Assembly (NCBI GenBank): GCA_043228905.1
Contig: JBHGNT010000053.1
Span: 1-64,000, forward strand
Length of the DNA: 64,000 nt
From: Azolla caroliniana
Lineage: Eukaryota > Plantae > Polypodiophyta
Reading direction: 5' to 3'
The notes beneath the pieces were generated by a model. That model saw only the letters and a program-made list of their open reading frames with translations. It did no database searches and was not told the origin of the DNA. The translations under genes were made by a program, and so were the position numbers. Shown here piece by piece: positions 1 through 57,821 of this stretch (its first letter is position 1; each line of letters starts with the position of its first letter).

Positions 1-788
1 AAAAATTTGATGGAACGAGGTCGCGTTTCCGAGGGTTCATCAACCAAGTTCGACTTATCATTCGGCTACAACCTCAACGTTATGGAGATGGTCTTCGACA
101 AGTCGGTCTTGTGGGCACCCTTCTCTCCGGTCCGGCCCAAGCTTGGTTTGCACCATTGGTAGAAACCTCATCACCTTTATTGGAGGACTTTCCCGCCTTC
201 CTCGCCGAGTTAGAGGCCACATTTGGAGAGACGGACCGACGACGTACAGCTCTTAACAAGATTTATGCACTCGAACAAGGTTCACGTGCAGCTTCGGTCT
301 ATGCTTCCGAATTTCGACAACTAGCATGCGACGTCAATTGGGATGATCAAGCTTTAGTTGATCACTTTCGGCGCGGTCTTCGAAGTAATGTCAAGAATCT
401 TCTCTTAAACTTTCCAGAGCCCACCTCGTTATCCCAAGCGATTTCACAAGCAGTCCATTGTGACAATCGTCTTTTCGAATTTCGCCAAGAAGAGCGCCGG
501 ACTTGGGTTCCACCTCATTCACTTCCACGCCACGCCCCGGTCATACAACCCCAAGCATACTCACACTCGCCTACTTCGGCAGATGCTCCTGTCCCCATGG
601 AAATTGATCAAGCCCGATTTCGGCCATTGACTGATGCTGAACGACAATTTCGGCGGGCTAATGGCTTGTGCATGTATTGTGGCGCCTCCGGTCATGTCGT
701 TCGCCATTGTCCTAGGAGTACTCGCCCACAATTCCATCGAGCTAACGGACCCCAACATCCGGAAAACGACATCGTTCGGTTGCAGTAG
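1..788 (+). CDS. gag: Gag of A1 (5'-truncated by window edge), capsid + CCHC zinc knuckle
   Basis: Near-identical to 5065-6081; PMEID motif and CMYCGASGHVVRHC knuckle; stop TAG 786-788. Confidence 0.93.
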   Translation, partial: KFDGTRSRFRGFINQVRLIIRLQPQRYGDGLRQVGLVGTLLSGPAQAWFAPLVETSSPLLEDFPAFLAELEATFGETDRRRTALNKIYALEQGSRAASVYASEFRQLACDVNWDDQALVDHFRRGLRSNVKNLLLNFPEPTSLSQAISQAVHCDNRLFEFRQEERRTWVPPHSLPRHAPVIQPQAYSHSPTSADAPVPMEIDQARFRPLTDAERQFRRANGLCMYCGASGHVVRHCPRSTRPQFHRANGPQHPENDIVRLQ

Positions 789-793
789 GAGCC

Positions 794-3700
794 ATGCAAC
801 TGGACATCTCCCGTCGCCCACATTCTCTTGGTTCCATTGCCGGACCATCAGGCAATTTCACATTGGAGGTATGGCTTTCGTTTAACTCTAGTTCCATTCA
901 GTCTGTTGCTTTACTTGATTCTGGGGCATCTTCTTGCTTCATCGACGTCGCGTTTGCCCAAGCACATGGCGTACCTGTCGTTGGCCTCTCAAAACCCATT
1001 CCAGTTGAAGCCATTGACGGGTGCGTCCTCTCGTCAGGTGCAATTACTCAAGCTACAATCCCATTAGGGCTTCGGGTGGGCTCACACCAAGAGGAGCTCA
1101 CCTTTTACCTCATCGCATCTCCTCGACATCCGATCGTCTTAGGACTAACGTGGTTGGAGGCGCACAATCCAATAGTAGATTGGTGCAACCGCTCGATCAC
1201 ATTTAGCAAGCCAAGATGCTCGTGCAAAAGTATGAAGGTAAATTCAGTTTCCTATCCTTCGGAGACGGTCGACTCCGAATTGACTACCCCATCATTCGTC
1301 CAGGATGGGTTTGTTTGTGGCGCCATTTCTAACACACTCCATGTTATTCCCGAAAAATACCAACACTTCTCCGACGTATTTGAAAAATGTAATGCTGATC
1401 GGTTGCCTGAACATCGGCTCTACGACTGTCCGATTGATCTTCAAGAAGGTGCGTGTCCACCCTTTGGTCCTCTATATGCGTTGTCTGCACCAGAGTTGAA
1501 GGCCCTTCGTGTGTATCTTGATGAGAACCTCGCGAAAGGCTTTATTCAACCTTCTAAGTCACCAGCCGGGGCCCCCATTTTATTTGTGAAGAAGAAGGAC
1601 GGCTCTCTACGCTTATGCGTCGACTACCGAGGTCTCAACAAACTCACTGTGCGCAACCGCTATCCGCTACCTCTGATCCCCGAACTCCTTGATCGGCTCC
1701 GAGTTGCGCGTGTCTTCTCCAAAGTTGATCTGCGTGGCGCGTACAATCTAGTACGCATCAAGCCGGGGGATGAATGGAAAACCGCATTTCGAACACGGTA
1801 TGGGCATTTCGAATACAAGGTAATGCCTTTTGGTCTTACTAACGCTCCCGCAGTTTTTCAACATATGATGAACGATATTTTCCGGGAATATCTTGATCTT
1901 TTTGTTGTCATTTACCTCGATGATATTCTCATTTTCTCGCCAAACATGGAGGAGCACACTCGCCAAGTCCAATTAGTTCTGGCCAAACTTCGCGAGCATG
2001 GCCTTTATGCCAAAGGCGAGAAATGCGAGTTCGACCGTACCTCGATCGAATTTCTGGGCTACATCATCTCGCCCACTGGCATCACCATGGATATGAAGAA
2101 GGTCTCTGTCATTCAGGCGTGGGCGACTCCAAGGCGACTTAAAGATGTGCAATCCTTCCTCGGCTTCGCAAATTTTTACCGTCGCTTCATCAAGGGGTTT
2201 TCCACCCTAGCACAACCTCTTATCGCTCTCACCCATAAGGGCACTCCATTTTTATGGACCTCAGAGGCACAAAATGCGTTCGACTCACTCAAACACGCAT
2301 TCATCACTGCCCCGGTGCTGCTACATGCCGACCCCACAAAACCCTTCCAAGTCGAAACCGATGCCTCTGACTTTGCCATTGGCGCCATCTTATCCCAAGC
2401 AGACGACAACAACCTAATGCACCCAGTGGCTTACTATTCCCGAAAATTTACGGCATCCGAAATCAATTATCCCATTTACGACAAGGAGCTTGCTGCTATC
2501 ATTGCTGCCTTTGAAGAATGGCGACCCTACTTGGCCGGCGCACAACATCGTGTCCAGGTAGTGACTGATCATAAAAATTTAGTTTATTTTTCCACCACTC
2601 GTACTTTGAATCGAAGGCAGGCCCGTTGGTCAACATTTCTCGCTGACTACGATTTTGAGATTGTATTTCGACCTGGTGGCCAACATGGGAAGGCTGATGC
2701 CCTTTCTCGCCGAGCTGACCTTGCACTCCGCCCTGGGGATGCTGCTTATGCTCAACAATCTAGACGTTTGTTGAAACCCGACCAATTGCATATGTTTGCC
2801 ACTTGTATGTTGCAGGATGATTCTTTACTCCAACAAATCACTGATGCATCCAAGACCGATGCGTTCGCCAACGAGATTCGAGATAGTCTGCAAAACCCCT
2901 CCAAGGCGACCAAAAGGAAGGATCTTGACACCTTCACCATACAAGAGGGTTTGTTGTTCCGAGATCATCTCTTATACGTCCCAGAGGGCCCATGTCGCAC
3001 CCGGGTGTTGCGGGAATGCCACGATGACCCACTTGCAGGTCATTTCGGGGTCGCGAAAACCCTCGAGCTAATCTCTCGGGGGTATTGGTGGCCACAACCA
3101 TGGAAGCTGGTCAAAGAATACATAAAGAGTTGTGAGGTTTGTGCTCGCTCCAAAGCCATTCATCATCGGCCATACGGCTTACTACAGCCGCTTCCATGTC
3201 CTCGTCGTCCTTGGGCCTCTATCTCTATGGACCTGATAACTGATCTACCCTTGGTCAATAGTTATGACTCGGTGTTGGTCGTTGTCGATCGGTTTACGAA
3301 GATGGCTCACTTCACTCCATGCTCCAAAACCATTTCCGGAGAAGGAATGGTGCATCTCCTACTCAACAATGTAGTACGCTTGCATGGACTCCCCGATGAT
3401 GTCATCTCGGATCGCGGACCCCAGTTTGTCTCTCACTTCTGGCAGCGCTTGCTACAAACTTTAGGCATCTCTGTCAAGTTGTCCTCCGCTTATCACCCCC
3501 AAACTGACGGGCAAACGGAGCCTGTCAACCAAATCCTTGAGCAGTATCTTCGGTGCTCGGTTAGTTACCAACAAGATGATTGGGTCAACTTACTTTCGCT
3601 CGCGGAATTCGCCTACAATAATTCTCTCCATGCATCGACTGGCGTCACTCCCTTCTTTGCCAACTATGGTTTACATCCTCGCTTCAACATTTCCCTTCCT

Positions 3701-4342
3701 ACCACTTCCGTGAACCCTTCGGCGGAGGATCGTGCCCGCATTTTGGAAGAAGTACATCATGATTTATCCTTGGAGCTTAGTCTTGCTAATGAACGATACA
3801 AGAAGCAGGCTGATCGCCATCGATCTTCCACTCCACACTTTGTCGTTGGAGACATGGTCTGGTTGTTACGTCGACACATCTCTACTACTCGTCCATGTGC
3901 GAAACTTGATTACAAGAAGTTGGGACCATTCCGTATCATCGAGTGCATCAATCCCGTCGCCTTCCGGCTCGCCCTTCCATCCCACTTCCGGATTCACGAT
4001 GTTTTTCATGTCTCCCTCCTCGAACCCCATTATGCTTCACAACTCCCAGGACGTCAAGCCCCACCACCACCACCTGTGCAGTTGACGACAGGGGAGGAAT
4101 ACGAGGTCGACCAAATCCTTGACTCGCGTTGGCACCGTCGACACTTGCAATACCTCGTCCTATGGCGGGGTTACCCCATGTCTGAGGCCACATGGGAACC
4201 ATCGGCAAATTTACAAAATGCCCCAGAGGTCGTCCAAGATTTTCATCACCGATATCCCCACAAACCAGCGGCCGATTTGGGAAGGCGGCGTAAGAGGGGG
4301 GATAATGTCAAGATTCGAACTCTTGACACGACCATGTTATAA
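794..4342 (+). CDS. pol: Pol polyprotein of A1 (aspartic protease, RT, RNase H, integrase, chromodomain)
   Basis: LLDSGA protease, YLDD RT, ETDASD RNase H, HHCC + D,D35E integrase, GPF motif, chromodomain YEVDQIL..YLVLWRGY..ATWEP. Frame is open from 746 (-1 relative to gag) and runs into the 3' LTR. Confidence 0.95.
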   Translation: MQLDISRRPHSLGSIAGPSGNFTLEVWLSFNSSSIQSVALLDSGASSCFIDVAFAQAHGVPVVGLSKPIPVEAIDGCVLSSGAITQATIPLGLRVGSHQEELTFYLIASPRHPIVLGLTWLEAHNPIVDWCNRSITFSKPRCSCKSMKVNSVSYPSETVDSELTTPSFVQDGFVCGAISNTLHVIPEKYQHFSDVFEKCNADRLPEHRLYDCPIDLQEGACPPFGPLYALSAPELKALRVYLDENLAKGFIQPSKSPAGAPILFVKKKDGSLRLCVDYRGLNKLTVRNRYPLPLIPELLDRLRVARVFSKVDLRGAYNLVRIKPGDEWKTAFRTRYGHFEYKVMPFGLTNAPAVFQHMMNDIFREYLDLFVVIYLDDILIFSPNMEEHTRQVQLVLAKLREHGLYAKGEKCEFDRTSIEFLGYIISPTGITMDMKKVSVIQAWATPRRLKDVQSFLGFANFYRRFIKGFSTLAQPLIALTHKGTPFLWTSEAQNAFDSLKHAFITAPVLLHADPTKPFQVETDASDFAIGAILSQADDNNLMHPVAYYSRKFTASEINYPIYDKELAAIIAAFEEWRPYLAGAQHRVQVVTDHKNLVYFSTTRTLNRRQARWSTFLADYDFEIVFRPGGQHGKADALSRRADLALRPGDAAYAQQSRRLLKPDQLHMFATCMLQDDSLLQQITDASKTDAFANEIRDSLQNPSKATKRKDLDTFTIQEGLLFRDHLLYVPEGPCRTRVLRECHDDPLAGHFGVAKTLELISRGYWWPQPWKLVKEYIKSCEVCARSKAIHHRPYGLLQPLPCPRRPWASISMDLITDLPLVNSYDSVLVVVDRFTKMAHFTPCSKTISGEGMVHLLLNNVVRLHGLPDDVISDRGPQFVSHFWQRLLQTLGISVKLSSAYHPQTDGQTEPVNQILEQYLRCSVSYQQDDWVNLLSLAEFAYNNSLHASTGVTPFFANYGLHPRFNISLPTTSVNPSAEDRARILEEVHHDLSLELSLANERYKKQADRHRSSTPHFVVGDMVWLLRRHISTTRPCAKLDYKKLGPFRIIECINPVAFRLALPSHFRIHDVFHVSLLEPHYASQLPGRQAPPPPPVQLTTGEEYEVDQILDSRWHRRHLQYLVLWRGYPMSEATWEPSANLQNAPEVVQDFHHRYPHKPAADLGRRRKRGDNVKIRTLDTTML

Positions 4343-4658
4343 TCTACTATTATGAGTTAACCAAGATATCTAGTACTAGTTATGTATGTAATTGGTCCTT
4401 ATTATTTTGCTAGCATCATGTGCATAGTTGCTCCTTTGTAGTATTTACACTTGGCACATGCATGCATACCTACATGCTCTATTGTAGATTCACATGCGTG
4501 CAACAAGTGTGCATGCCATGTAGTATAAATAGAGGAGTTCACCTTGAAGGAATTCAAGGTGAACAACACCAGTTATGGAGTCTTTCCTTTAGTACTATCT
4601 TCTTTCTTGTCCATTTGGTTATCTTCTTGGTTGTCTCTTGAGTTTATGATCCGTGACA
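4306..4658 (+). repeat. 3' LTR of A1 (353 bp)
   Basis: TGTCA...TGACA termini, preceded by PPT+AA; TATAAATA at 4524. Differs from the two A2 LTRs at 5 positions I could see. Confidence 0.95.
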
Positions 4659-4662
4659 GTAA

Positions 4663-5015
4663 TGTCAAGATTCGAACTCTTGACACGACCATGTTATAAT
4701 CTACTATTATGAGTTAACCAAGATATCTAGTACTAGTTATGTATGTAATTGTTCCTTATTATTTTGCTAGCATCATGTGCATAGTTGCTCCCTTGTAGTA
4801 TTTACACTTGGCACATGCATGCATACCTACATGCTCTATTGTAGATTCACATGCGTGCAACAAGTATGCATGCCATGTAGTATAAATAGAGGAGTTCACC
4901 TTGAAGGAATTCAAGGTGAACAACACCAGTTATGGAGTCTTTCCTTTAGTACTATATTCTTTCTTGTCCATTTGGTTATCTTCTTCGTTGTCTCTTGAGT
5001 TTATGATCCGTGACA
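4663..5015 (+). repeat. 5' LTR of A2 (353 bp)
   Basis: TGTCA...TGACA; TATAAATA at 4881. Confidence 0.95.
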
Positions 5016-5028
5016 GTTTGTTCACCTT
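4881..5028 (+). promoter_or_regulatory. LTR promoter (TATA), predicted transcript 5' end AAGGTGAACAA (4913-4923) and complementary self-priming PBS TTGTTCACCTT (5018-5028)
   Basis: Exact 11-nt complementarity. The 11-mer starts 32 nt after the TATA box start. There is no TGG tRNA-type PBS after the LTR. Confidence 0.8.
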
Positions 5029-5064
5029 CCATCCTCATAGCTCTCCCTCTCATAAGCCATAGCT

Positions 5065-6081
5065 ATGTCCGACTCAACTAGTGAGTTAGGCCAAATAATG
5101 GTAGCCTTACGACAACTACAGCTTGAAAATGAAGCTCTTCGAAATTCTTTACAAGAACTTCAAGTCGGTACCTCCCTATCCTCACAACCCCCGAACCCTA
5201 GTCTCCCACAACAACCTAGCCTAGAGCCCGATCTTCTACCAACATCTAGCCTAGCTTCATCACAGTTTCTTGAGCCTAAGGTTAGCCTCCCAGAAAAATT
5301 TGATGGAACGAGGTCGCGTTTCCGAGGGTTCATCAACCAAGTTCGACTTATCATTCGGCTACAACCTCAACGTTATGGAGATGGTCTTCGACAAGTCGGC
5401 CTTGTGGGCACCCTTCTCTCCGGTCCGGCCCAAGCTTGGTTTGCACCATTGGTAGAAACCTCATCACCTTTATTGGAGGACTTTCCCGCCTTCCTCGCCG
5501 AGTTAGAGGCCACATTTGGAGAGACGGACCGACGACGTACAGCTCTTAACAAGATTTATGCACTCGAACAAGGTTCACGTGCAGCTTCGGTCTATGCTTC
5601 CGAATTTCGACAACTAGCATGCGACGTCAATTGGGATGATCAAGCTTTAGCTGATCACTTTCGGCGCGGTCTTCGAAGCAATGTCAAGAATCTTCTCTTA
5701 AACTTTCCGGAGCCCACCTCGTTATCCCAAGCGATTTCACAAGCAGTCCATTGTGACAATCGTCTTTTCGAATTTCGCCAAGAAGAGCGCCGGACTTGGT
5801 TCCCACCTCATTCACTTCCACGCCACGCCCCGGTCATACAACCCCAAGCATCCTCACACTCGCCTACTTCGGCAGATGCTCCTGTCCCCATGGAAATTGA
5901 TCAAGCCCGATTTCGACCATTGACTGATGCTGAACGACAATTTCGGCGGGCTAATGGCTTGTGCATGTATTGTGGCGCCTCCGGTCATGTCGTTCGCCAT
6001 TGTCCTAGGAGTACTCGCCCACAATTCCATAGAGCTAACGGACCCCAACATCCGGAAAACGACATCGTTCGGTTGCAGTAG
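5065..6081 (+). CDS. gag: Gag of A2 (338 aa; coiled coil, capsid, CCHC knuckle; Sushi/PEG10-like)
   Basis: LPEKFDGTRSRFRGFINQ capsid motif, PMEID, CMYCGASGHVVRHC. Confidence 0.95.
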   Translation: MSDSTSELGQIMVALRQLQLENEALRNSLQELQVGTSLSSQPPNPSLPQQPSLEPDLLPTSSLASSQFLEPKVSLPEKFDGTRSRFRGFINQVRLIIRLQPQRYGDGLRQVGLVGTLLSGPAQAWFAPLVETSSPLLEDFPAFLAELEATFGETDRRRTALNKIYALEQGSRAASVYASEFRQLACDVNWDDQALADHFRRGLRSNVKNLLLNFPEPTSLSQAISQAVHCDNRLFEFRQEERRTWFPPHSLPRHAPVIQPQASSHSPTSADAPVPMEIDQARFRPLTDAERQFRRANGLCMYCGASGHVVRHCPRSTRPQFHRANGPQHPENDIVRLQ

Positions 6082-6086
6082 GAGCC

Positions 6087-9000
6087 ATGCAACTGGACAT
6101 CTCCCGTCGCCCACATTCTCTTGGTTCCATTGCCGGACCATCAGGCAATTTCACATTGGAGGTATGGCTTTCGTTTAACTCTAGTTCCATTCAGTCTGTT
6201 GCTTTACTTGATTCTGGGGCATCTTCTTGCTTCATCGACGTCGCGTTTGCCCAAGCACATGGCGTACCTGTCGTTGGCCTCTCAAAACCCATTCCAGTTG
6301 AAGCCATCGACGGGTGCGTCCTCTCGTCAGGTGCAATTACTCAAGCTACAATCCCATTAGGGCTTCGGGTGGGCTCACACCAAGAGGAGCTCACTTTTTA
6401 CCTCATCGCATCTCCTCGACATCCGATCGTCTTAGGACTAACGTGGTTGGAGGCGCACAATCCAATAGTGGATTGGTGCAACCGCTTGATCACATTTAGC
6501 AAGCCAAGATGCTCGTGCAAAAGTATGAAGGTAAATTCAGTTTCCTATCCTTCGGAGACGGTCGACTCCGAATTGACTACCCCATCATCCGTCCAGGATG
6601 GGTTTGTTTGTGGCACCATTTCTAACACACTCCATGTTATTCCTGAAAAATACCAACACTTCTCCGACGTATTTGAAAAATGTAATGCTGATCGGTTGCC
6701 TGAACACCGGCTCTACGACTGTCCGATTGATCTTCAAGAAGGTGCGTGTCCACCCTTTGGTCCTCTATATGCGTTGTCTGCACCAGAGTTGAAGGCCCTT
6801 CGTGTGTATCTTGATGAGAACCTCGAGAAAGGCTTTATTCAACCTTCTAAGTCACCAGCCGGGGCCCCCATTTTATTTGTGAAGAAGAAGGACGGCTCTC
6901 TACGCTTATGCGTAGACTACCGAGGTCTCAACAAACTCACTGTGCGCAACCGCTATCCGCTACCTCTGATCCCCGAACTCCTTGATCGGCTCCGAGTTGC
7001 GCGTGTCTTCTCCAAAGTTGATCTGCGTGGCGCGTACAATCTAGTACGCATCAAGCCGGGGGATGAATGGAAAACCGCATTTCGAACACGGTATGGGCAT
7101 TTCGAATACAAGGTAATGCCTTTTGGTCTTACTAACGCTCCCGCAGTTTTTCAACATATGATGAACGATATTTTCCGAGAATATCTTGATCTTTTTGTTG
7201 TCATTTACCTCGATGATATTCTCATTTTCTCGCCAAACATGGAGGAGCACACTCGCCAAGTCCGATTAGTTCTGGCCAAACTTCGCGAGCATGGCCTCTA
7301 TGCCAAAAGCGAGAAATGCGAGTTCGACCGTACCTCGATCGAATTTCTGGGCTACATCATCTCGCCCACTGGCATCACCATGGATATGAAGAAGGTCTCT
7401 GTCATTCAGGCGTGGGCGACTCCAAGGCGACTTAAAGATGTGCAATCCTTCCTCGGCTTCGCGAATTTTTACCGTCGCTTCATCAAGGGGTTTTCCACCC
7501 TAGCACAACCTCTTATCGCTCTCACCCATAAAGGCACTCCATTTTTATGGACCTCGGAGGCACAAAATGCGTTCGACTCACTCAAACACGCATTCATCAC
7601 TGCCCCGGTGCTGCTACATGCCGACCCCACAAAACCCTTCCAAGTCGAAACCGATGCCTCTGACTTTGCCATTGGCGCCATCTTATCCCAAGCAGACGAC
7701 AACAACCTAATGCACCCAGTGGCTTACTATTCCCAAAAATTTACGGCATCTGAAATCAATTATCCCATTTACGACAAGGAGCTTGCTGCTATCATTGCTG
7801 CCTTTGAAGAATGGCGACCCTACTTGGCCGGCGCACAACATCGTGTCCAGGTAGTGACTGATCATAAAAATTTAGTTTATTTTTCCACCACTCGTACTTT
7901 GAATCGAAGGCAGGGCCGTTGGTCTACATTTCTCGCCGACTACGATTTTGAGATCGTATTTCGACCTGGAGGCCAACATGGGAAGGCTGATGCCCTTTCT
8001 CGCCGAGCTGACCTTGCACTCCGCCCTGGGGATGCTGCTTATGCTCAACAATCTAGACGTTTGTTGAAACCCGACCAATTGCATCTGTTTGCCACTTGTA
8101 TGTTGCAGGATGATTCTTTACTCCAACAAATCACTGATGCATCCAAGACCGATGCGTTCGCCAACGAGATTCGAGATAGTTTGCAAAACCCCTCCAAGGC
8201 GACCAAAAGGAAGGATCTTGACACCTTCACCATACAAGAGGGTTTGTTGTTCCGAGATCATCTCTTATACGTCCCAGAGGGCCCATGTCGCACCCGGGTG
8301 TTGCGGGAATGCCACGATGACCCACTTGCAGGTCATTTCGGGGTCGCGAAAACCCTCGAGCTAATCTCTCGGGGGTATTGGTGGCCACAACCATGGAAGC
8401 TGGTCAAAGAATACATAAAGAGTTGTGAGGTTTGTGCTCGCTCCAAAGCCATTCATCATCGGCCATACGGCTTACTACAGCCGCTTCCATGTCCTCGTCG
8501 TCCTTGGGCCTCTATCTCTATGGACCTGATAACTGATCTACCCTTGGTCAATAGCTATGACTCGGTGTTGGTCGTTGTCGATCGGTTTACGAAGATGGCT
8601 CACTTCACTCCATGCTCCAAAACCATTTCCGGAGAAGGAATGGTGCATCTCCTACTCAACAATGTAGTACGCTTGCATGGACTCCCCGATGATGTCATCT
8701 CGGATCGCGGACCCCAGTTTGTCTCTCACTTCTGGCAGCGCCTGCTACAAACTTTAGGCATCTCTGTCAAGTTGTCCTCCGCTTATCACCCCCAAACTGA
8801 CGGGCAAACGGAGCGTGTCAACCAAATCCTTGAGCAGTATCTTCGGTGCTCGGTTAGTTACCAACAAGATGATTGGGTCAACTTACTTTCGCTCGCGGAA
8901 TTCGCCTACAATAATTCACTCCATGCATCGACTGGCGTCACTCCCTTCTTTGCCAACTACGGTTTACATCCTCGCTTCAACATTTCCCTTCCTACCACTT

Positions 9001-9638
9001 CCGTGAACCCTTCGGCGGAGGATCGTGCCCGCATTTTGGAAGAAGTACATCATGATTTATCCTTGGAGCTTAGTCTTGCTAATGAACGATACAAGAAGCA
9101 GGCTGATCGCCATCGATCTTCCACTCCACACTTTGTCGTTGGAGACATGGTTTGGTTGTTACGTCGACACATCTCTACTACTCGTCCATGTGCGAAACTT
9201 GATTACAAGAAGTTGGGACCATTCCGTATCATCGAGTGCATCAATCCCGTCGCCTTCCGGCTCGCCCTTCCATCCCACTTTCGGATTCACGATGTTTTTC
9301 ATGTCTCCCTCCTCGAACCCCATTATGCTTCACAACTCCCAGGACGTCAAGCCCCACCACCACCACCTGTGCAATTGACGACAGGGGAGGAATACGAGGT
9401 CGACCAAATCCTTGACTCGCGTTGGCACCGTCGACACTTGCAATACCTCGTCCTATGGAGGGGTTACCCCATGTCTGAGGCCACATGGGAACCATCGGAA
9501 AATTTACAAAATGCCCCAGAGGTCGTCCAAGATTTTCATCACCGATATCCCCACAAACCAGCGGCCGATTTGGGAAGGCGGCGGCGTAAGAGGGGGGATA
9601 ATGTCAAGATTCGAACTCTTGACACGACCATGTTATAA
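6087..9638 (+). CDS. pol: Pol polyprotein of A2 (PR-RT-RH-IN-chromodomain)
   Basis: Uninterrupted 1183-aa ORF with all catalytic motifs; integrase QTDGQTERVNQ intact. Confidence 0.96.
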   Translation: MQLDISRRPHSLGSIAGPSGNFTLEVWLSFNSSSIQSVALLDSGASSCFIDVAFAQAHGVPVVGLSKPIPVEAIDGCVLSSGAITQATIPLGLRVGSHQEELTFYLIASPRHPIVLGLTWLEAHNPIVDWCNRLITFSKPRCSCKSMKVNSVSYPSETVDSELTTPSSVQDGFVCGTISNTLHVIPEKYQHFSDVFEKCNADRLPEHRLYDCPIDLQEGACPPFGPLYALSAPELKALRVYLDENLEKGFIQPSKSPAGAPILFVKKKDGSLRLCVDYRGLNKLTVRNRYPLPLIPELLDRLRVARVFSKVDLRGAYNLVRIKPGDEWKTAFRTRYGHFEYKVMPFGLTNAPAVFQHMMNDIFREYLDLFVVIYLDDILIFSPNMEEHTRQVRLVLAKLREHGLYAKSEKCEFDRTSIEFLGYIISPTGITMDMKKVSVIQAWATPRRLKDVQSFLGFANFYRRFIKGFSTLAQPLIALTHKGTPFLWTSEAQNAFDSLKHAFITAPVLLHADPTKPFQVETDASDFAIGAILSQADDNNLMHPVAYYSQKFTASEINYPIYDKELAAIIAAFEEWRPYLAGAQHRVQVVTDHKNLVYFSTTRTLNRRQGRWSTFLADYDFEIVFRPGGQHGKADALSRRADLALRPGDAAYAQQSRRLLKPDQLHLFATCMLQDDSLLQQITDASKTDAFANEIRDSLQNPSKATKRKDLDTFTIQEGLLFRDHLLYVPEGPCRTRVLRECHDDPLAGHFGVAKTLELISRGYWWPQPWKLVKEYIKSCEVCARSKAIHHRPYGLLQPLPCPRRPWASISMDLITDLPLVNSYDSVLVVVDRFTKMAHFTPCSKTISGEGMVHLLLNNVVRLHGLPDDVISDRGPQFVSHFWQRLLQTLGISVKLSSAYHPQTDGQTERVNQILEQYLRCSVSYQQDDWVNLLSLAEFAYNNSLHASTGVTPFFANYGLHPRFNISLPTTSVNPSAEDRARILEEVHHDLSLELSLANERYKKQADRHRSSTPHFVVGDMVWLLRRHISTTRPCAKLDYKKLGPFRIIECINPVAFRLALPSHFRIHDVFHVSLLEPHYASQLPGRQAPPPPPVQLTTGEEYEVDQILDSRWHRRHLQYLVLWRGYPMSEATWEPSENLQNAPEVVQDFHHRYPHKPAADLGRRRRKRGDNVKIRTLDTTML

Positions 9639-9954
9639 TCTACTATTATGAGTTAACCAAGATATCTAGTACTAGTTATGTATGTAATTGTTCCTTATTA
9701 TTTTGCTAGCATCATGTGCATAGTTGCTCCCTTGTAGTATTTACACTTGGCACATGCATGCATACCTACATGCTCTATTGTAGATTCACATGCGTGCAAC
9801 AAGTATGCATGCCATGTAGTATAAATAGAGGAGTTCACCTTGAAGGAATTCAAGGTGAACAACACCAGTTATGGAGTCTTTCCTTTAGTACTATATTCTT
9901 TCTTGTCCATTTGGTTATCTTCTTCGTTGTCTCTTGAGTTTATGATCCGTGACA
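9602..9954 (+). repeat. 3' LTR of A2 (353 bp)
   Basis: TGTCA...TGACA, followed by CCTAT (candidate TSD half). Confidence 0.95.
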
Positions 9955-10322: not shown

Positions 10323-10392
10323 AGTATAGGGAAAAGGGTAGGAGGATGAGGGAGAGTGACAAGTAGGCTGGAGGAGAAAATTGGTTCAAACT

Positions 10393-10566
10393 GTCAGGAA
10401 TAGTACTAAAACAGAGATGGAATTAGTACTAAAGAAGAGTAGTACTATTAGTCAGGAATAGTACTAAAACAGAGATGGAATTAGTACTAAAGAAGAGTAG
10501 TACTATTAGTCAGGAATAGTACTAAAACAGAGATGGAATTAGTACTAAAGAAGAGTAGTACTATTA
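10393..10566. repeat. 3 x 58-bp perfect tandem repeat at the U5 end of LTR B
   Basis: Unit GTCAGGAATAGTACTAAAACAGAGATGGAATTAGTACTAAAGAAGAGTAGTACTATTA starts at 10393, 10451 and 10509. Confidence 0.95.
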
Positions 10567-10950
10567 GTACTAAGGGGGACGGGACTACGTAAGACTCCCG
10601 AGAGAGGAAGTGAGAAGAGGAGAGAGAGATATCGAGAATGAGAGAGAGAGAGAGATGATGACAACGGCTAATATATTATGTGAAAGATAAGTACAAAGCG
10701 GCGAAGAGGATTAAGACTGGTGTTGAACCAATTTGGTTCAAAACAATGCCTTGTGCCTCCTTTTATAGCGTTTCTAGGAATAAGCCTGAAGCTTCTAGAA
10801 TGTTCCAGAGAGATCTGGAATATACATCAATTTTCTATGATAAAACATAAATGAAAATAATATCCTACAAATTACAATTCATAGTCTAATGGTAGTAGCT
10901 CGACCCATGTAGCATAAGGTCATGGGTTCGAGTCTTGCCATATCATGACA

Positions 10951-13900
10951 GGTGCATCCGGATCTGATTGTACCCGCTAAATTCGTCTAGAAAGCTATAG
11001 ACCTCATGGCCGGCGACGGCATCCAACACTCCATCTGTGAACGGAAGTGGAAACGCATCCATTACCGTAGCCGCATTGAGTTTCCGGTAGTCCACACAAA
11101 TTCGAATTTTTCCGTTCTTCTTCGGTACGACTACGATCGGGTTCAACCATGTCGCTTTCTTTACCGGACGGATAAAGCCAACTCTTAGCAGTTTGTCGAT
11201 TTCCTCCTTGACTTTGGCGGCATAATTGGGATTCATCCGGTACCGTCTTTGTGCCACTGGTTTTGCATCCTTGCTCAAGTGAATCTGATGCTGGTATAAC
11301 TGAGGGTCGAGCCCTCGCATGTCTTCGTATGACCAGGCAAACACGTCACGAAATTCCGTGAGAAGTGTGATCATCGTGTTTTGTCTTCGGACTTCATCTC
11401 CTTGGCGATGTGCACCGGTTTTGCTTCGTCCGTGGTCCCTAGGTTCACCTCTTCAAGTTGAGACGCTTTTACGCGCTGTGAAACGGCCATTTCCCGTTCC
11501 AACGCTTCCTGCGCTTGTCGTAACTCTCGGATTGCATCCTTATCCGGTTCTGCTTCAGTCTCTTCCGGCTGCGGTAAGTATGGTGCTACTGCTTCGGTAA
11601 TGTCAATTTCGAAGAGGGGTACGATCTTCGGGTTTTCCTACAAGTACTGAGCTTCTTCTTCATCAGCTAACCCTTCTAGCATGTTGACGCACTCTGCATA
11701 CAACGGTGTACATTCCTTGCCAATGCTCGTCCTTGGCTGTGTTGGTACCCATACCTTGGCTTTTCCTCGCCGGAAGGTAATTATATTTTTCCTCCAATTC
11801 TGTTTGATATGTGCCATTTTCAACCACGCCCGCCCCAGCAATAGCGGGTATGCGCCTTGTGCCTGTAATTGTAGCACTACTGCCGAAATGTGAAATGTAT
11901 GACCGCCAACGGTGACTTCTAATTTTCGTATTAATCCTGTTGGCCGCACTAAGCTTGTATCGGCCATCCGTAACCAGAACGGACACGGCTCCCACTCGTG
12001 GATTCCCAAGGCATCACACGTCCGGAGGCTTATTACATTCACACCGGAGCCTCCGTCTATTACTGTGTCGGGGAGTTCTTTCCCTTTTACAATGGCAGTA
12101 ATTACCGGACTGTTGGTGTCCACCACCGTTGGTCCCTCCTCCGGATTCGAGAAGAGTACCGGTGCCAGTGATGATTCTCCTTCCGTCCTGGCTGTCTTCA
12201 ATCCTTCCGTGAATCTTGGCACGAGCTGTAGGAGTCTTCCTAGTGGCAGCGTAATCTGGCATTCTTGCAACGCCTGCCATGTCTCGTTCTCGGAGTGACT
12301 GCCGCCGGCAAGCCCTACGGTGTTCTCCTTTTGCCACTCTAAGTCTGTTACGTTTTGCTTGTTTGCTTTCTTCACCCATTCCGTCGCTTGCTTCCGGATG
12401 GTCTCCTGCGTCTCCCATTCCTTGGCCATGCCCTTCGACCTTGTGGTCACCTGCTGTAGATCTGCCACTTCAGGGACTACCATATTTACTGCCGGTCATT
12501 TGTCATAGCTCTTCACCGGGCATTGATTACTATAATGGCCTTCCTGTCGGCAGTAGTAGCAGTAGGTTTTCCGGGTATTGCTGGATTCGACATTGTTTGT
12601 TGTATCCGGGGCAGGTCCTGTGGTAAGCGCGGGGTTTTGGGCCGGTTGGCTGCTTGAAGCTCCTTGTTCCGGATCCCGTGGGTGGCCGCCTTTTTTGAAA
12701 TGTCGTTTTTTGTTATAGTTCTTCTTATTGCGGTACTCTTGACGAGGTTGGTCGTTATATCTGCCGTATTCCTCCCATTGCTGACGATACCCGGGGGAGT
12801 GCTCCCGGTCGTAATGTTCGTATCGTCTATTGTAATCCTGGTACCGATCATATCTATCGTACCGGTCGTAGTTATCACGCCGATCACCGTACCGAACATC
12901 ATTCTCCCGTCGATCGCCATACCAGACATCTTGTGCCGGTCGGTCGCGGTCCATTCGCCGCCAGCGTTCCTCTTCTTCATCCCGACTGCTATGTGGCTCT
13001 ATTTGTCGGACGGGCGATGCTTGCCGGTTCAATAGATTATACTCGCACCTATTCATCATATGGCCCTTGGATTGACAGATTACACATTGCGTCCTCATAG
13101 TGCATTCTAGTGTCGAGTGTCCGGAATTCAAGCAGGTTGTGCACTGTATTGCTTGCCGAAACCGGAGGTCTTCATCGGACAGTAACGCCCGTTGGAGTGC
13201 TCCCAGTGTGAGCTAGGAGCTTGTGTTTTCCATCTCTCACCCGGTCAATGACCTGGTCGATGGTACTTGCACAGAAGTCAATTACCGTGCAAACCGTGCG
13301 TAGGGGTTTCCGGAGCACATTTAGGAATATAGTCCGTAATTCCTCCTCCGGGGGTGCGCGGGCAAGCTGACTATGCATCCGTTGAAACCGGATGACAAAC
13401 TGGGGAATGCTCTCCCCTGCCTCCTGTCGGATGGTATAAAATAAGCCCACCATTACTATCTGGTCCACCTCCCTTTGGAAAAAATGCAAGAATTTAGCTT
13501 TAAAATCTGCGAAGGTGGTGATGGTAGACGGGTCATGCGTCCGGCGCCATCTTGCTGTCGGTCCCTCCAATGTGACGCCAAATTCCGCTATCTTAGAGCG
13601 TTCCTCTTCCTCCGGGGTCAATCGTTGGGACACATGGTTTGCTTCCCATGTCTGTTCAAAGGCGTGAACATGAGCTTCCGCGTCCGGATCATCTCTATAC
13701 TTGGAGTACTGGAACGGCATGTCGTCGTCCGGTACCGGTGCGCGGGTTGGTGGTGTTGGTGGTCGTTCCTGGTTTTTCTCCGGCGTCGGTGGTCTTTCCT
13801 GATTTGTCTCTGGCGTCGGTGGTCTTTCATCTTCTTTTGGTGACGGAGGCCTCTCCTCCTCGACTTCCGGTGTCGGAGGTCGCTCTTCCTCTGCTTCTGG

Positions 13901-14798
13901 TTCCGGAGGTTCCAGCCTTAGCATTTCCAATTCCTGTGTCGGTAAGGTGTCTGATCCTTCGTCCCCCGGTCCGCCCGGGGTGTCGTTGCTGCTACGGTAG
14001 TTCGTGTGCACGTTGTATCCCCCTTCGGAATCCGATTCATACGCTGAAAAGGCTTCTGCTTCGCCTTCTCTGCTTGCCAACGCCTGGAGAAGGGATTCGG
14101 TTTCCAGGAGGCTTATTAGGCTGCTGTCATCATCCGGGTGCGATGTTTGCTGTAACCGGAGGGACTCCTCCGCTACTCTCCAGATTACGTTGGAAAACGA
14201 GCGATCCGCTGTAATTTCTTGTGCCGCTTGCTGGAAAGCCTCACGTCTCCTTTGCCTTTCGGCAGTGCGTCGAGTTCGATCTATAACCAGGTCGTGCGTT
14301 GATCTAGTCATCCATTTGTGCCGTCGTTCATTGCAAAAACAGGAATCGTGGTCGCCAAAAACTGTGTTAACTCTTAGGGCCGGACAATGGCCTAACACAG
14401 GGTGTCTACGGAAGACACTTCACCAAAGGGGTGTTACGGCAAGAGGATTAGGCTCAACGATTAATCCGACTTAATTAGGCTACTTAGCAAGATCGTCCTT
14501 AATAATCACACGCGTAAGATATAACAATGAATGCAGAACGACAATTAACACATAGAGATAAAAACACTAAGCTTCATTAATTATCCGCTGCCCATTACAT
14601 TGTATCCGGGCCTTTAAATAGGTTTCCGGTTTTTAATACAAAACGGTGCCATCCGCACCTGTTCGGGATCGGTCTGGATCCGGAACGGCATACCGATTCC
14701 GGTCCGTCCGCCCACACTAATAGCTTACTTACAACCATTCCTAATAATTAAATAACTCCTTCGTTTCACACTCTGGACTCCTTTGCCGGCCGGTAACA
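10951..14798 (-). mobile_element. Degenerate non-chromovirus Ty3/Gypsy element C (5' LTR, gag, zinc knuckles, protease, RT N-terminus), cut by insertion of B
   Basis: LTR 14432-14798 (TGTTAC...GTAACA); gag from ATG 14311; three CCHC knuckles (about 12500-13145); protease VIDGGSG (11638-12483); RT PIVVVPKKNGKIRICVDYRKLN...FSGYNQI ending at 10951; several stops and frameshifts. Confidence 0.88.
14432..14798 (-). repeat. 5' LTR of element C (367 bp)
   Basis: 6-bp terminal inverted repeat TGTTAC/GTAACA, directly upstream of the gag leader. Confidence 0.75.
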
Positions 14799-43740: not shown

Positions 43741-46166
43741 GCTCACTCACTCGTGGACATTAATTCATTCATTATTCATATATCTATGTACATATATCAT
43801 CATCATCAAAATCATCATCATCATCTCTGTGTGGTCGGTCGGTCACGCAGACCAAAATACATGAACATACATATGTACATACATTCTTCATTTCTTTCTT
43901 ATCTATCTAGTATCTAGTCAAGGGAGTTATTAAGAAGTTTTACAAGAGAACCATTTCGAATGCAAGTGGGCGGGCAATCACACACAAGAATCAACCAAAC
44001 TCGTTAGTGCGGCTCTTTTATTGACACAACTATCAATAATTATTGACATAAAAGAGTTGATAGTTGTGTCAATAATTATTGACACAACTATCAACTCTTT
44101 TATGCATGGACAACAATTGGGGCAACCACAAAGGAGTCCATCCATCTCCCCATAACAATAGAACATGATGGATGTCCTATGTTGGTGGTGATGCAACATC
44201 CACATCTAACAACACTTGTGATGCATTATCGACCTCGAGAGCTCACCAATGACACTTTGGAGGCAATTTTAGTAATGACAAATAGTGTTTCACTCTTTGC
44301 GCTCATATACAACACTACTACTAGCCCATCCAATGACAAAGCTTGGTATGCCCGATCGATAACATTTGCTCCAACTCTCCTTGCGTCAACTCCCAGATGA
44401 CAAGAAATCAAAGCTCAAGTTTATCATTTGGACACGAAACAGGTGTCTCCAAACTATCATCGTGATCCTCTCCAATAAGATCCTTTGAGGAAATCATGGT
44501 GTCCTTGATTTGGGGATGGTGACTATGTGAACAGACATTCAAACATATGGCAAACTAACCACTTGTTTCAATATCTTACTTGGGTGTTATACAAAAGCGC
44601 ATCGTATGCATGCATGTGTAGGTGGAAACTCGTTGACATTGTGGACTAGGAAATGGGTGGGATGATCCAATATATATCAAAGAATGCATAGCGCGTGGGG
44701 TGTTGGAACAAAGAATATGTGAATCAGTATCTTGGCTTGTGAGATTTCAAACCTCCAACGCCTATGTTAGAAACAAGATGCTTCAAATTATTGAGCAAGG
44801 AACGATATATAACGTAAAATAACAACCAAGCAAGCAAGGATACACAGGTATGAATGAATGTATGATTTATCTTGAGCTTTTTAAGATATATTGTGTGCCT
44901 ATAAGAGATTTGTTGAAGTTGGGGAGATATTTACAAGGGACACAATTGCATGCGAAGGAATTTAAGGGGAGATTGTGGAACATTCAAAAGCTAAAACATG
45001 GTGGCGAATAATGTGTCTTGTTGAAAGGAAAGTAGGGCAAGACAATCAAAGTGTTATCATAAACTCAAAGTCACGAAGATACACATGGCAAACATTTGGT
45101 GTTTGGCAATGCCTCTTATTAAATTTTGAAGGTGAAACTCCATCATGGGTTGTCTCTAATTAGTAGAAGATATTCTCTTAAAAAATCATTTGCATTGGGT
45201 AGGAGACATAGGAGTGAGAGGAAGTGAATTGTTGGAGGTGATTGTCAACGAAGTATGCCATGATCCACACAAAATGCCCAACCATGGGCATCACATCGAA
45301 AAGTTGACTAGTTGAGAGTGAAGCACACCTTTGGTGAGCATTGTGAAAATCTTACCATGTTCATCTATGTGGAAGAGGATAGAAGTTGGGACTGGTGGAT
45401 ATGTAGCCAAGAGTCGGTTGAACAATTTATCAATGACGCAACCATCTAATTAAGGTTAACCCTCCAAGGTGGTTATTTATCGGGGGGCTTCAAAAGGAAG
45501 TTTTGAACCTAATGAGCTTGACCCAACTCTAGGGACACAATTATCAATCAAGTTGTTGGTTGTCAACATACAACATTGGGTATAAGAGCATATCAATTTG
45601 TTGTTCAATGGAACTTCAAGGTAAAAGTGCGAGAGATGTGTGATGAGGGGTAGTTCAAAAAGCTCATGGTAATAAGCAAGAGGAACAACAAAATGTTTGT
45701 TGTTGTCCTCATTCCATTTTGTCCACATATTCCGGGAGTGTGCCATTGAGCTTGAACCAATAATTGGCCATAAAAACAATTGGCATTGAAGCTTTGGATG
45801 AATAATTAGAGCTTGAGTTTCACAATGTGAAGATGAGGATGACAATTGTCGGTGGAGGGGTCCGTCAATGAGAGGAACGTCCTTAAGCAAAAAATTTACT
45901 AATGTAGGTTCCAAATGATGAAAAACAATGTGTTAGGCGTGATGCTTGCAAGTGGGGTTGTGGTTTGTGTCTTATTTGCAGAAATGGGTGTCAAGGACGT
46001 GTAATCTTGACTCACAACATGTGGGATGTTGAGTGAAATGAATATGAAGCCCTCCATAGAAAATACGATCTAGCCTTTTCTGTTATTAACCGTTCGGTTG
46101 TAGCAAGGAGTGCGGGCGACTTTGTGATATAGTAGATAATGTAATAGTCAAAGAAGATATTCTAAG

Positions 46167-49174: not shown

Positions 49175-50027
49175 CATAAGTGGGGTTTCTTTCAAATTTA
49201 TGCAATAGTTTGAGCTTATACCGTTTACACACCTACTTTGTCTTATAAATGGCTACAGAAAAGTAATGAATCTTAAAAAATCCTCTAGGTTTCTTACGAA
49301 GCCAAATCAGCATCCTTGGCTAGGCCTAAAGAGTTTTTCCATCTGGCTGTAACTCCTTTATTTCACATCCATGTCATTCATTGCTCTTTTTAGTAATTTC
49401 CCAACTAAGTTAAACTAAATCAAACATACCATACCATACCAAATTAAACCAAATCAAACATACTATAGCATACCAAACCAAATTAAACTAAATCAAACAT
49501 ACCATACCATAGCAAATTAAACCAAATCAAACATACTATAGCATACCATACCAAATTAAACTAAATCAAACATACCATACCATACCATAGCAAATTAAAC
49601 CAAATCAAACATACTATAGCATACCATACAACTAAATCAAACATACCATACCATAGCAAATTAAACCAAATCAAACATACTATAGCATACCATACAACTA
49701 AATCAAACATACCATACCATACCAACTTAAACCAAATCAAACATACTATAGCATACCAAACCAAATTAAACTAAATCAAACATACCATACCATAAGTGGG
49801 GTTTCTTTCAAATTTATGCAATAGTTTGAGCTTATACCGTTTACACACCTACTTTGTCTTATAAATGGCTACAGAAAAGTAATGAATCTTAAAAAATCCT
49901 CTAGGTTTCTTACGAAGCCAAATCAGCATCCTTGGCTAGGCCTAAAGAGTTTTTCCATCTGGCTGTAACTCCTTTATTTCACATCCATGTCATTCATTGC
50001 TCTTTTTAGTAATTTCCCGACTAAGTT
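49175..50027 (+). repeat. 237-bp direct repeats (49175-49411, 49791-50027) flanking a 379-bp satellite insert (49412-49790)
   Basis: The two copies differ at one visible base (CCCAACT vs CCCGACT); the insert is the same satellite as 56960-57793. Confidence 0.93.
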
Positions 50028-50455: not shown

Positions 50456-54673
<4,218 letters not shown>

Positions 54674-55507: not shown

Positions 55508-57821
55508 CCCGCACTAGCATCAGAGGGATCGTCATAATATAGTACATGCAATGACAAAAAATATTCAAAATGTTTTTGGTCTTTAACTTTGGAGATTTTG
55601 GTCTCCAAAATCAAACCTTAGAAACTTTTTGTGGTTGGCAATGTGTGGAATTTGAAGTTTTAAGTATTTTCAAAACACGTTTTTAGTTTTTTTGTGGTTG
55701 AAATTTATATTAATTGTTATTTTGGTAGTGGAAATTTTAATGTTTTGATGACAAAGGTTGTCAGAATCGGGCTATGGGAAACTCCCGTACTCTTTTAGAT
55801 AAAGATCTAATAGTGCAAATTGCACTTGGCCTCTGAAATGCGCCCTACACCGTTGTGACCGTGATTCCCTCACCAAGCCTTATTATCAGTTGGATGCAAA
55901 TAAACACCAGCCTTCTACATACAAACATACATATACTTTATGAGCCCGCCGAATCCCACGAAAACTAGAGATTGTGAGTTACATACATATGTAGAAACCT
56001 CTAATTGTGTCATGTGGCCAAAAGACCCTTTTGCTCATCCAACAAGTGAACGGTGTTCCCATTAGTCGGTCCTATGAAAGAGTTGCGAGTAATTTCACAA
56101 GTTTTCTCACTCTTTCTCTATATGTGTGCATGTGCATGCATGTGTGGATGCATGTCTGTCTCAGGGTATGTTAGGGTTTTTATGTAGTTTTTATGCCAAG
56201 GGTTTTGTTTATGATGAAACTAGGTGTCGCGTCGTGACATATCTGGATGATCGTGATGGCCACATACACAGAAGCATTAATTAGATGTTTTTGATCCTTG
56301 CCCCGATGACACAATGACTCACCTTTGTTTGTTTACACAGTACATTGTCATATAACAATTATCCCCATATTTGCAATCCTATTCTAAAAGCGTGAACATC
56401 ATGGTTGGTTTTGACACATTGAATCCTTTCTTCTTCTTCTTTTTAATAACAAGCTCCTCCCCCTTCTTCGCAATGTGTTGTTTAATTAGCAAACGATTAG
56501 CACACATGTGGTTAGGCCGCCATAAAACTCTGCATGGTTTACAATTGTTTTTATTACGATCTTCGAAGGATTTATTTGAATGTATTCCTTTGTCTTTACA
56601 CATATAGATTGTTCACCTTTCATGTTGGCAATGCGCAAACAAAAGAGAGGTATTTGGCTTGACTCAGAGTCACATGGAAGTTCGAGAAACATGTCTTTCA
56701 CATAGCGAATTCTTGTGGTATTGAATTGAAGGTATTGCCAACCCAATCCAACCAGCCCGTATCCTACCGAATTGAACCATATCATAGTGAATTAAGCCTA
56801 ATTAAACCAAACCATACTAAATTAAACCAAATCAATCCAATTCAACCAACCCAATACGAATTCTTGTGGTATTGAATTGAAGGTGTTGCCAACCCAATCC
56901 AACCAACCCAATATCCTACCAAATTGAACCATATCATAGTGAATTAAGCATAATTAAACCATATCATACCAAATCAAACATACTATACCATACCATACCA
57001 AATTAAACCAAATCAAACATACTATAGCATACCAAACCAAATTAAACTAAATCAAACATACCATACCATACCAAATTAAACCAAATCAAACATACTATAG
57101 CATACCAAACCAAATTAAACTAAATCAAACATACCATACCATACCAAATTAAACCAAATCAAACATACTATAGCATACCAAACCAAATTAATCTAAATCA
57201 AACATACCATACCATACCAAACCAAATTAAACTAAATCAAACATACCATACCATACCAAATTAAACCAAATCAAACATACTATAGCATACCAAACCAAAT
57301 TAAACTAAATCAAACATACCATACCATACCAAATTAAACTAAATCAAACATACCATACCATACCAAATTAAACTAAATCAAATATACCATACCATAGCAA
57401 ATTAAACCAAATCAAACATACTATAGCATACCATACCAAATTAAACTAAATCAAACATACCATACCATACCATAGCAAATTAAACCAAATCAAACATACT
57501 ATAGCATACCATACAACTAAATCAAACATACCATAGCATACCATACAACTAAATCAAACATACCATACCATACCAACTTAAACCAAATCAAACATACTAT
57601 AGCATACCAAACCAAATTAAACTAAATCAAACATACCATACCATACCAAATTAAACCAAATCAAACATACTATAGCATACCAAACCAAATTAAATTAAAT
57701 CAAACATACCATACCATACCAAATTAAACTAAATCAAACATACCATACCATACCAAATTAAACCAAATCAAACATACCATACCATACCAAATTATGACGA
57801 TCCCTCTGATGCTAGTGCGGG
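55508..57821. mobile_element. Non-autonomous TIR element with 31-bp perfect TIRs (CCCGCACTAGCATCAGAGGGATCGTCATAAT), carrying a satellite
   Basis: 55508-55538 is the exact reverse complement of 57791-57821. No coding ORF inside; no clean TSD (AA left, TA right). Confidence 0.7.
56960..57793. repeat. Satellite of ~34-39-bp units built from 5-mers (AAACC AAATC AAACA TACCA TACCA ...)
   Basis: Direct reading; preceded by a ~150-bp duplication (about 56706-56960). Confidence 0.95.

Follow-up and report, generated by a model that had tools for sequence, protein, structure and literature searches.

The LTRs of a group of retrotransposons in the genome of Azolla caroliniana carry an inverted repeat at the U3/R junction, predicted to fold into a hairpin in which an arm located in U3 pairs with the putative self-primer of the element. 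The feature is real and conserved within its clade, which belongs to a known group of self-priming elements; it apparently has not been described before and is dispensable in sister families. In self-priming elements the primer is present at both RNA ends, and the literature searched held no account of how the 3' copy is excluded from the primer-binding site (PBS); a U3 arm would be a simple answer. On the basis of covariation and folding models we tentatively read the arm as an auxiliary mask that may keep the 3' primer copy off the PBS and so act against mis-priming. No description of a U3 arm directed against a self-primer was found in the literature searched, the primary Tf1 papers excepted. 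The presence of armed and armless sister families within one genome offers a natural comparison.

Tandem chromoviruses at the contig start

The window, i.e., the whole 64,000-nucleotide stretch of DNA analysed, begins at a contig start (genome of 523 Mb) and presented two family A elements in tandem within bases 1-9954 (Table 1). LTR copies 2 and 3 were identical and copy 1 differed from both at 5 of 353 bases. We infer that the GT+AA junction between copies 1 and 2 arose by head-to-tail joining of two unprocessed cDNA ends, in agreement with a PBS beginning at LTR+3. Genome-wide, two exact family A junctions of this kind and one that was a base short were found, with PBS letters kept in none of the three. 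Contig C80, compared for the left end of the tandem, matched on the B side only and did not reveal that end.

The family A elements are Tf1/sushi-type (Tcn1-like) chromoviruses. A Pfam scan showed the PR-RT-RH-IN order and the C-terminal chromodomain that characterize chromoviruses (Ty3/gypsy), and the aromatic-cage residues Y, W and Y were located by eye in 4098-4250 by comparison with the text of Figure S10A (PMC10085805 supplement, in part). As in the Tcn1 clade and Tf1/sushi elements, the LTR of the element itself was complementary to the PBS, with a perfect match of 11-12 nt. Named homologues were mostly fungal, amphibian and plant. In the portions consulted, the chromoviruses of non-seed plants that form the Tcn1 clade (REXdb; PMC6317226, PMC2864245) are likewise described as having gag and pol, a C-terminal chromodomain, no tRNA PBS and predicted self-priming, and among plants Tcn1 elements have been reported in mosses and club mosses (PMC6317226, in part). 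Those portions describe no U3 hairpin, and the terms "hairpin" and "palindrom" are absent from the main texts of PMC6317226 and PMC2864245.

Table 1 Location of the features discussed (positions are those of the window unless contigs are named)
Feature	Position	Strand	Remarks
Upstream element, pol ORF	746..4342	+	5' end of the element cut off by contig start
Upstream element, polypurine tract	4292..4303	+	from sequence
LTR A copy 1	4306..4658	+	3' LTR of upstream element
TATA box	4524..4530	+	32 nt upstream of primer start
U3/R hairpin, LTR copy 1	4537..4564	+	arm 4537-4548, loop 4549-4552, 3' arm 4553-4564
3' copy of the 11-nt predicted self-primer	4556..4566	+	first R bases; identical to 4913-4923
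Conserved post-primer motif CACCAG	4567..4572	+	putative landing site of minus-strand strong-stop DNA
GT+AA junction	4659..4662	+	between LTR A copies 1 and 2
LTR A copy 2	4663..5015	+	5' LTR of complete element
Hairpin, LTR copy 2	4894..4921	+	RNA starting at 4913 would lack the U3 arm
Predicted self-primer, 11 nt	4913..4923	+	RNA 5' end; perfect complement of 5018-5028
Primer-binding site	5018..5028	+	2 nt past LTR
Complete element, gag ORF	5056..6081	+	stop to stop
Complete element, pol ORF	6039..9638	+	protease, RT, RNase H, integrase, SH3_Tf2-1, chromodomain
LTR A copy 3	9602..9954	+	3' LTR of complete element
Hairpin, LTR copy 3	9833-9860	+	
Family B primer-binding site	10378..10389	-	
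Family B LTR	10392..10950	-	
Family B proximal hairpin	10723..10741	-	U3 arm 10735-10741, predicted 12-nt primer 10723-10734
Tandem repeat arrays	52778-54393, 49319-49794, 56760-57791		
Loop-inverted/duplicated LTRs L291-L298	contigs C1, C2, C4, C7, C8, C13, C19		

Predicted self-priming and the U3/R hairpin

The self-priming geometry proposed in the earlier note was supported by sequence covariation, since differing primers, located 31-35 nt after the TATA box, were accompanied by matching PBSs across families. A pattern combining TATA box and post-primer motif gave 3032 matches in the genome versus 25 for a control. In Tf1 the PBS pairs with RNA bases 1 to 11 and RNase H cuts between bases 11 and 12 (PMC7175516, in part); by analogy, the RNA of the complete element would start at 4913, and its first 11 nt would pair with the PBS and be cut off as primer. 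When family A was folded from +1, the primer:PBS pairing probability was 0.94. Tf1, Tf2, Tj1 and the "pretzel" leader of Tf1/sushi elements are similar in that the first 11-12 nt of R complement the PBS (parts of PMC7175516 and 10.1101/2022.12.06.519325). Here a U5-side R/U5 duplex beside the PBS was predicted (z = -2.15) and a duplex 3' of the PBS was not. The three duplexes of the pretzel, as described in those parts, lie wholly inside R-U5-PBS at the 5' end, whereas the arm studied here is in U3, which would limit any action to the RNA 3' end or to read-through transcripts. Because strand transfer needs R past +12, judging from Tf1, the RNA 3' end should carry U3 and the second primer copy.

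The perfect 12-bp stem with a GGAA loop was exact in the three family A LTRs, and the folding of 4524-4570 gave z = -6.4, with none of 200 shuffles equally good. The hairpin spans the predicted cap site, placed by PBS complementarity and the TATA spacing given above. The proposal that U3 ends in a copy of the PBS held for the sequence of the arm, which matches 9 of 11 PBS bases, but not for its position, from -19 to -8 and away from the U3 terminus. The GNRA tetraloop did not stand as a conserved feature: the loop columns were the least conserved segment (identity 0.30), and loops vary freely and invert. With loops so variable, GNRA docking and loop-loop dimerisation were ruled out. An Rfam search of 4280-5100 gave no family at the gathering score (best 17.2 bits, cut-off 52). 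Among 100 LTRs listed, the perfect stem was kept in 73 of 90 of the A type (counted by eye), in a family too young to tell selection from age. In 8 of 15 rows of the A-side clade no other 44-nt window tested was as stable as the junction, but most LTRs held further hairpins of -10 to -23 kcal/mol, and U3 is rich in palindromes.

Family B had been reported to carry an analogous hairpin. Its palindrome is real, but it is unable to fold as the 9-bp stem and 1-nt loop described; the RNA (minus) strand gives an 8-bp stem closed by a 3-nt loop. The geometry differs from that of family A in that only 7 nt come from U3 and the primer forms the loop. The stability of this junction was exceeded by 8-18 of 65 windows. 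The B LTR of the window also presented a threefold 58-nt repeat in U5 (10375-10568), its R-U5 being 343 nt long versus 228 in sister copies, and it is adjoined by a different, fragmented Gypsy element with gag, protease and RT matches (10943-14419, minus strand). In a single family B3 LTR elsewhere in the genome (L070, C16:6401001-6404309), the hairpin had been removed by a clean deletion.

Covariation between U3 arm and primer across families was scored in an alignment of 15 distal-arm rows with one gap; the rows are related and were chosen for shared spacing. The score was 0.41, compared with 0.143 ± 0.023 for shuffles (none of 500 as high) and at most 0.135 for slid registers. In the A-stem register 78% of cells pair, and both partners differ in 6 of the 14 pairs, a count not above that of the shuffles (164 of 500). 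Pair 15-40 occurred as U-A, A-U and G-C, pair 18-37 as A-U and U-A, and pair 19-36 as C-G and G-C. Unprompted, RNAalifold recovered six of the register pairs. Outer stem pairs covary while imperfect, bulged stems persist.

A palindrome straddling the predicted start could also be a promoter element at the DNA level, fixing the start site that self-priming requires, and the TATA-to-CACCAG length was indeed identical in 14 of the 15 aligned elements. We consider this most improbable, given that the TATA-primer spacing is equally 32-33 nt in armless families and that the arm sequence follows primer changes, unlike a protein site; G-U cells also outnumbered A-C cells in the arm-primer pairs on the RNA strand (13 versus 6, a weak excess).

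Relatives with and without the arm

We compared 40 representative copies, 19 from this genome, 11 close and 10 distant relatives. The non-genome rows came from 85 viral or metagenome loci, most of which had no LTR plus PBS and hence were unused; viral contigs yielded six loci over four scans, and a gag scan yielded none. Every row represents a single real copy that we picked, in which the primer start may be off by one base where no clean PBS was present. Masking was scored by comparing U3 (-33 to -1) with shuffled U3 on the row's own primer (p ≤ 0.05). It was significant in 18 of 40 rows, i.e., all 10 with the AAG primer, all four of family B, L116, L121 and two of the 10 distant relatives. 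It was significant in none of the seven families D, D2, D3, E, F, G and H, nor in L112, L113, L114, L117, L118, L119 and L122 (p 0.055-0.45); the 11-bp stem of L118 extends beyond the primer, and the test truncated it. Thus 7 of 19 genome family representatives and 8 of 10 distant relatives had no significant arm, and the absence of the palindrome from most related families, which according to the earlier note would speak against its proposal, applies in part. The row's own primer was harder to open than every non-cognate primer in 18 of the 40 rows.

At least two arm geometries cover the primer: distal in A, and proximal in B, L113, L118 and C; L121 and the distant relative L189 also have such arms. 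The register was maintained across pol divergence to about 60-65% identity, and stems with fixed bulges or internal loops persist in A4, C2 and the L112-L119 group. In a gag+pol tree of 41 rows, arbitrarily rooted and without named references (C, C2, A6, D3 and B were omitted, B2-B4 standing for B), the CACCAG clade had a support of 100. One side of this clade, with the distal arm, comprised A, A2-A5, L111 and the L112-L119 group; the other comprised B, L113 and L118, with the proximal arm, together with D, E, F, G and H, which have no arm and, on grounds of parsimony, probably lost it. The primer of the E/F/H lineage is unlike that of B, and no arm tracks the changed primer. Of the first 100 LTRs in the list, 30 belonged to armless families (tallied by eye). 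The LTR pairs of armless families were 93-99.8% identical (five elements, including 99.8% and 98.8%) and those of armed families 87-100% (12 elements), the ranges overlapping. The near-identical armless pairs show that some armless families were recently active, and the arm is thus likely to be a useful safeguard rather than an indispensable switch.

Some further features of the relatives were recorded. The primer of the armless families E and F (L044, L048, L082) is nearly palindromic, and pairing between RNA copies would be possible. In the distant relative L106, inspected by eye, the partner of U3 lies in R downstream of the primer, and the primer itself falls in a loop. Family C (L054, L091, L092, L264) is abundant and has its own primer/PBS pair; a search for gag and pol in copies L264, L265, L259 and L267 gave no match, suggesting that the family is likely non-autonomous. 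Genome searches for new primer families returned mainly point-mutated copies of known ones, and the candidates L203/L231, L236/L250 and L244 had no matching PBS and were dropped.

Predicted masking and template switching

The masking switch was modelled in 22 rows with a PBS, in 15 of which primer and PBS match perfectly. These 15, when folded from +1, gave primer:PBS pairing of 0.90-0.98. The switch postulated earlier was reproduced by the models in about half of them: attaching 33 nt of U3 dropped pairing to 0-0.34 in 8 of 15 (0.34 in A) but left it unchanged in 7 of 15, pairing staying at 0.89-0.98 in C, L117, D2, D3, E, F and L122, with 0.97 in family C even though it has an arm. In a two-piece fold the arm cost the 3' piece 6.2-15.4 kcal/mol of its binding to the PBS in the same eight rows, 5.0 kcal/mol in C and 0-2.6 kcal/mol in five armless or weak rows. 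According to these foldings the hairpin would hold the 3' primer copy and also the primer of read-through or upstream-started RNA, and tandem arrays such as the one in the window would yield read-through RNA subject to masking. A mis-paired 3' copy would be a rival for the PBS and might expose to cleavage the 3' R on which strand transfer depends.

The polyA/TAR hairpins of HIV-1 and the R fold of HTLV-1 are likewise LTR RNA structures by which the two R copies are treated differently (PMC2645353, in part); these folds control polyadenylation in tRNA-primed viruses, whereas here it is the primer of the element itself that would be occluded. The hairpin might similarly serve the architecture of the 3' end, by looping out about 28 nt and bringing the U3 TATAAA near as a poly(A) signal, or by shaping the minus-strand transfer acceptor that follows immediately 3' of the stem. 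With one mismatch allowed, no AATAAA-like hexamer was present in the first 80 nt after the primer in eight of nine A-side rows (genome plus L111, ignoring the L108 row, a short-contig artefact), A4 having one. Parts of three papers offer precedents: plant Copia LTRs, for which a dual TATA/poly(A) role has been put forward (PMC3601003), the juxtaposition of signal and site by HTLV-1 structure (PMC2645353) and acceptor hairpins that can aid transfer in HIV-1 assays (PMC6088434). Yet the arm-bearing A4, B, B2, B3, L113 and L118 do have an R hexamer and the armless D and E have none, and a spacer hairpin need not pair with the primer itself, which makes a role in 3'-end architecture improbable.

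Eight of about 668 A-type hairpins were altered, seven by an inverted loop and one by a fold-back duplication of the stem, on at least three backgrounds (A, Ab and a third). The loop was inverted in both LTRs at C4 and in only one of two neighbouring LTRs at C2. It is reported that stems arise and are maintained through template switching, which also inverts loops (PMC8794818, in part). The hairpins treated in that part are similar in their loop inversions inside a perfect stem and their matched double changes, and differ in belonging to ribosomal RNA gene histories and not to an LTR at its primer. Template switching thus acts at the hairpin, and part of the arm-primer covariation could arise without selection. 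The earlier note left out this process. More generally, covariation in LTR palindromes may stem from template switching and by itself is not proof of function.

On these grounds the hairpin could be a self-perpetuating palindrome of little or no function, made by template switching that copies primer changes into the arm. The altered hairpins, the B copy with the clean deletion, the lack of an arm in active families and the abundance of palindromes in U3 are in line with such an origin. We nevertheless judge it unlikely, and selection is still favoured, because some stems retain fixed bulges and internal loops, which templated correction should erase, and because the primer is covered by arms that differ in geometry; the register, too, is retained down to the pol identity given above. 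If the arm is an auxiliary mask, template switching likely helps it to follow primer changes. It is conceivable, though rather doubtful, that a U3 "anti-primer" arm has evolved repeatedly in self-priming retrotransposons and permits priming by the correctly started 5' end only, with template switching letting the arm track the primer automatically. In that case the anti-primer arm would be an as yet undescribed cis-element that is general to self-primed reverse transcription.

Other palindromic or repeated sequences were present in the window. A perfect 29-bp palindrome without a loop was found at 44047-44104, and the tandem repeats comprised an array with a 21/27-nt TATGCA-rich palindromic unit and 34/39-nt units at two places.
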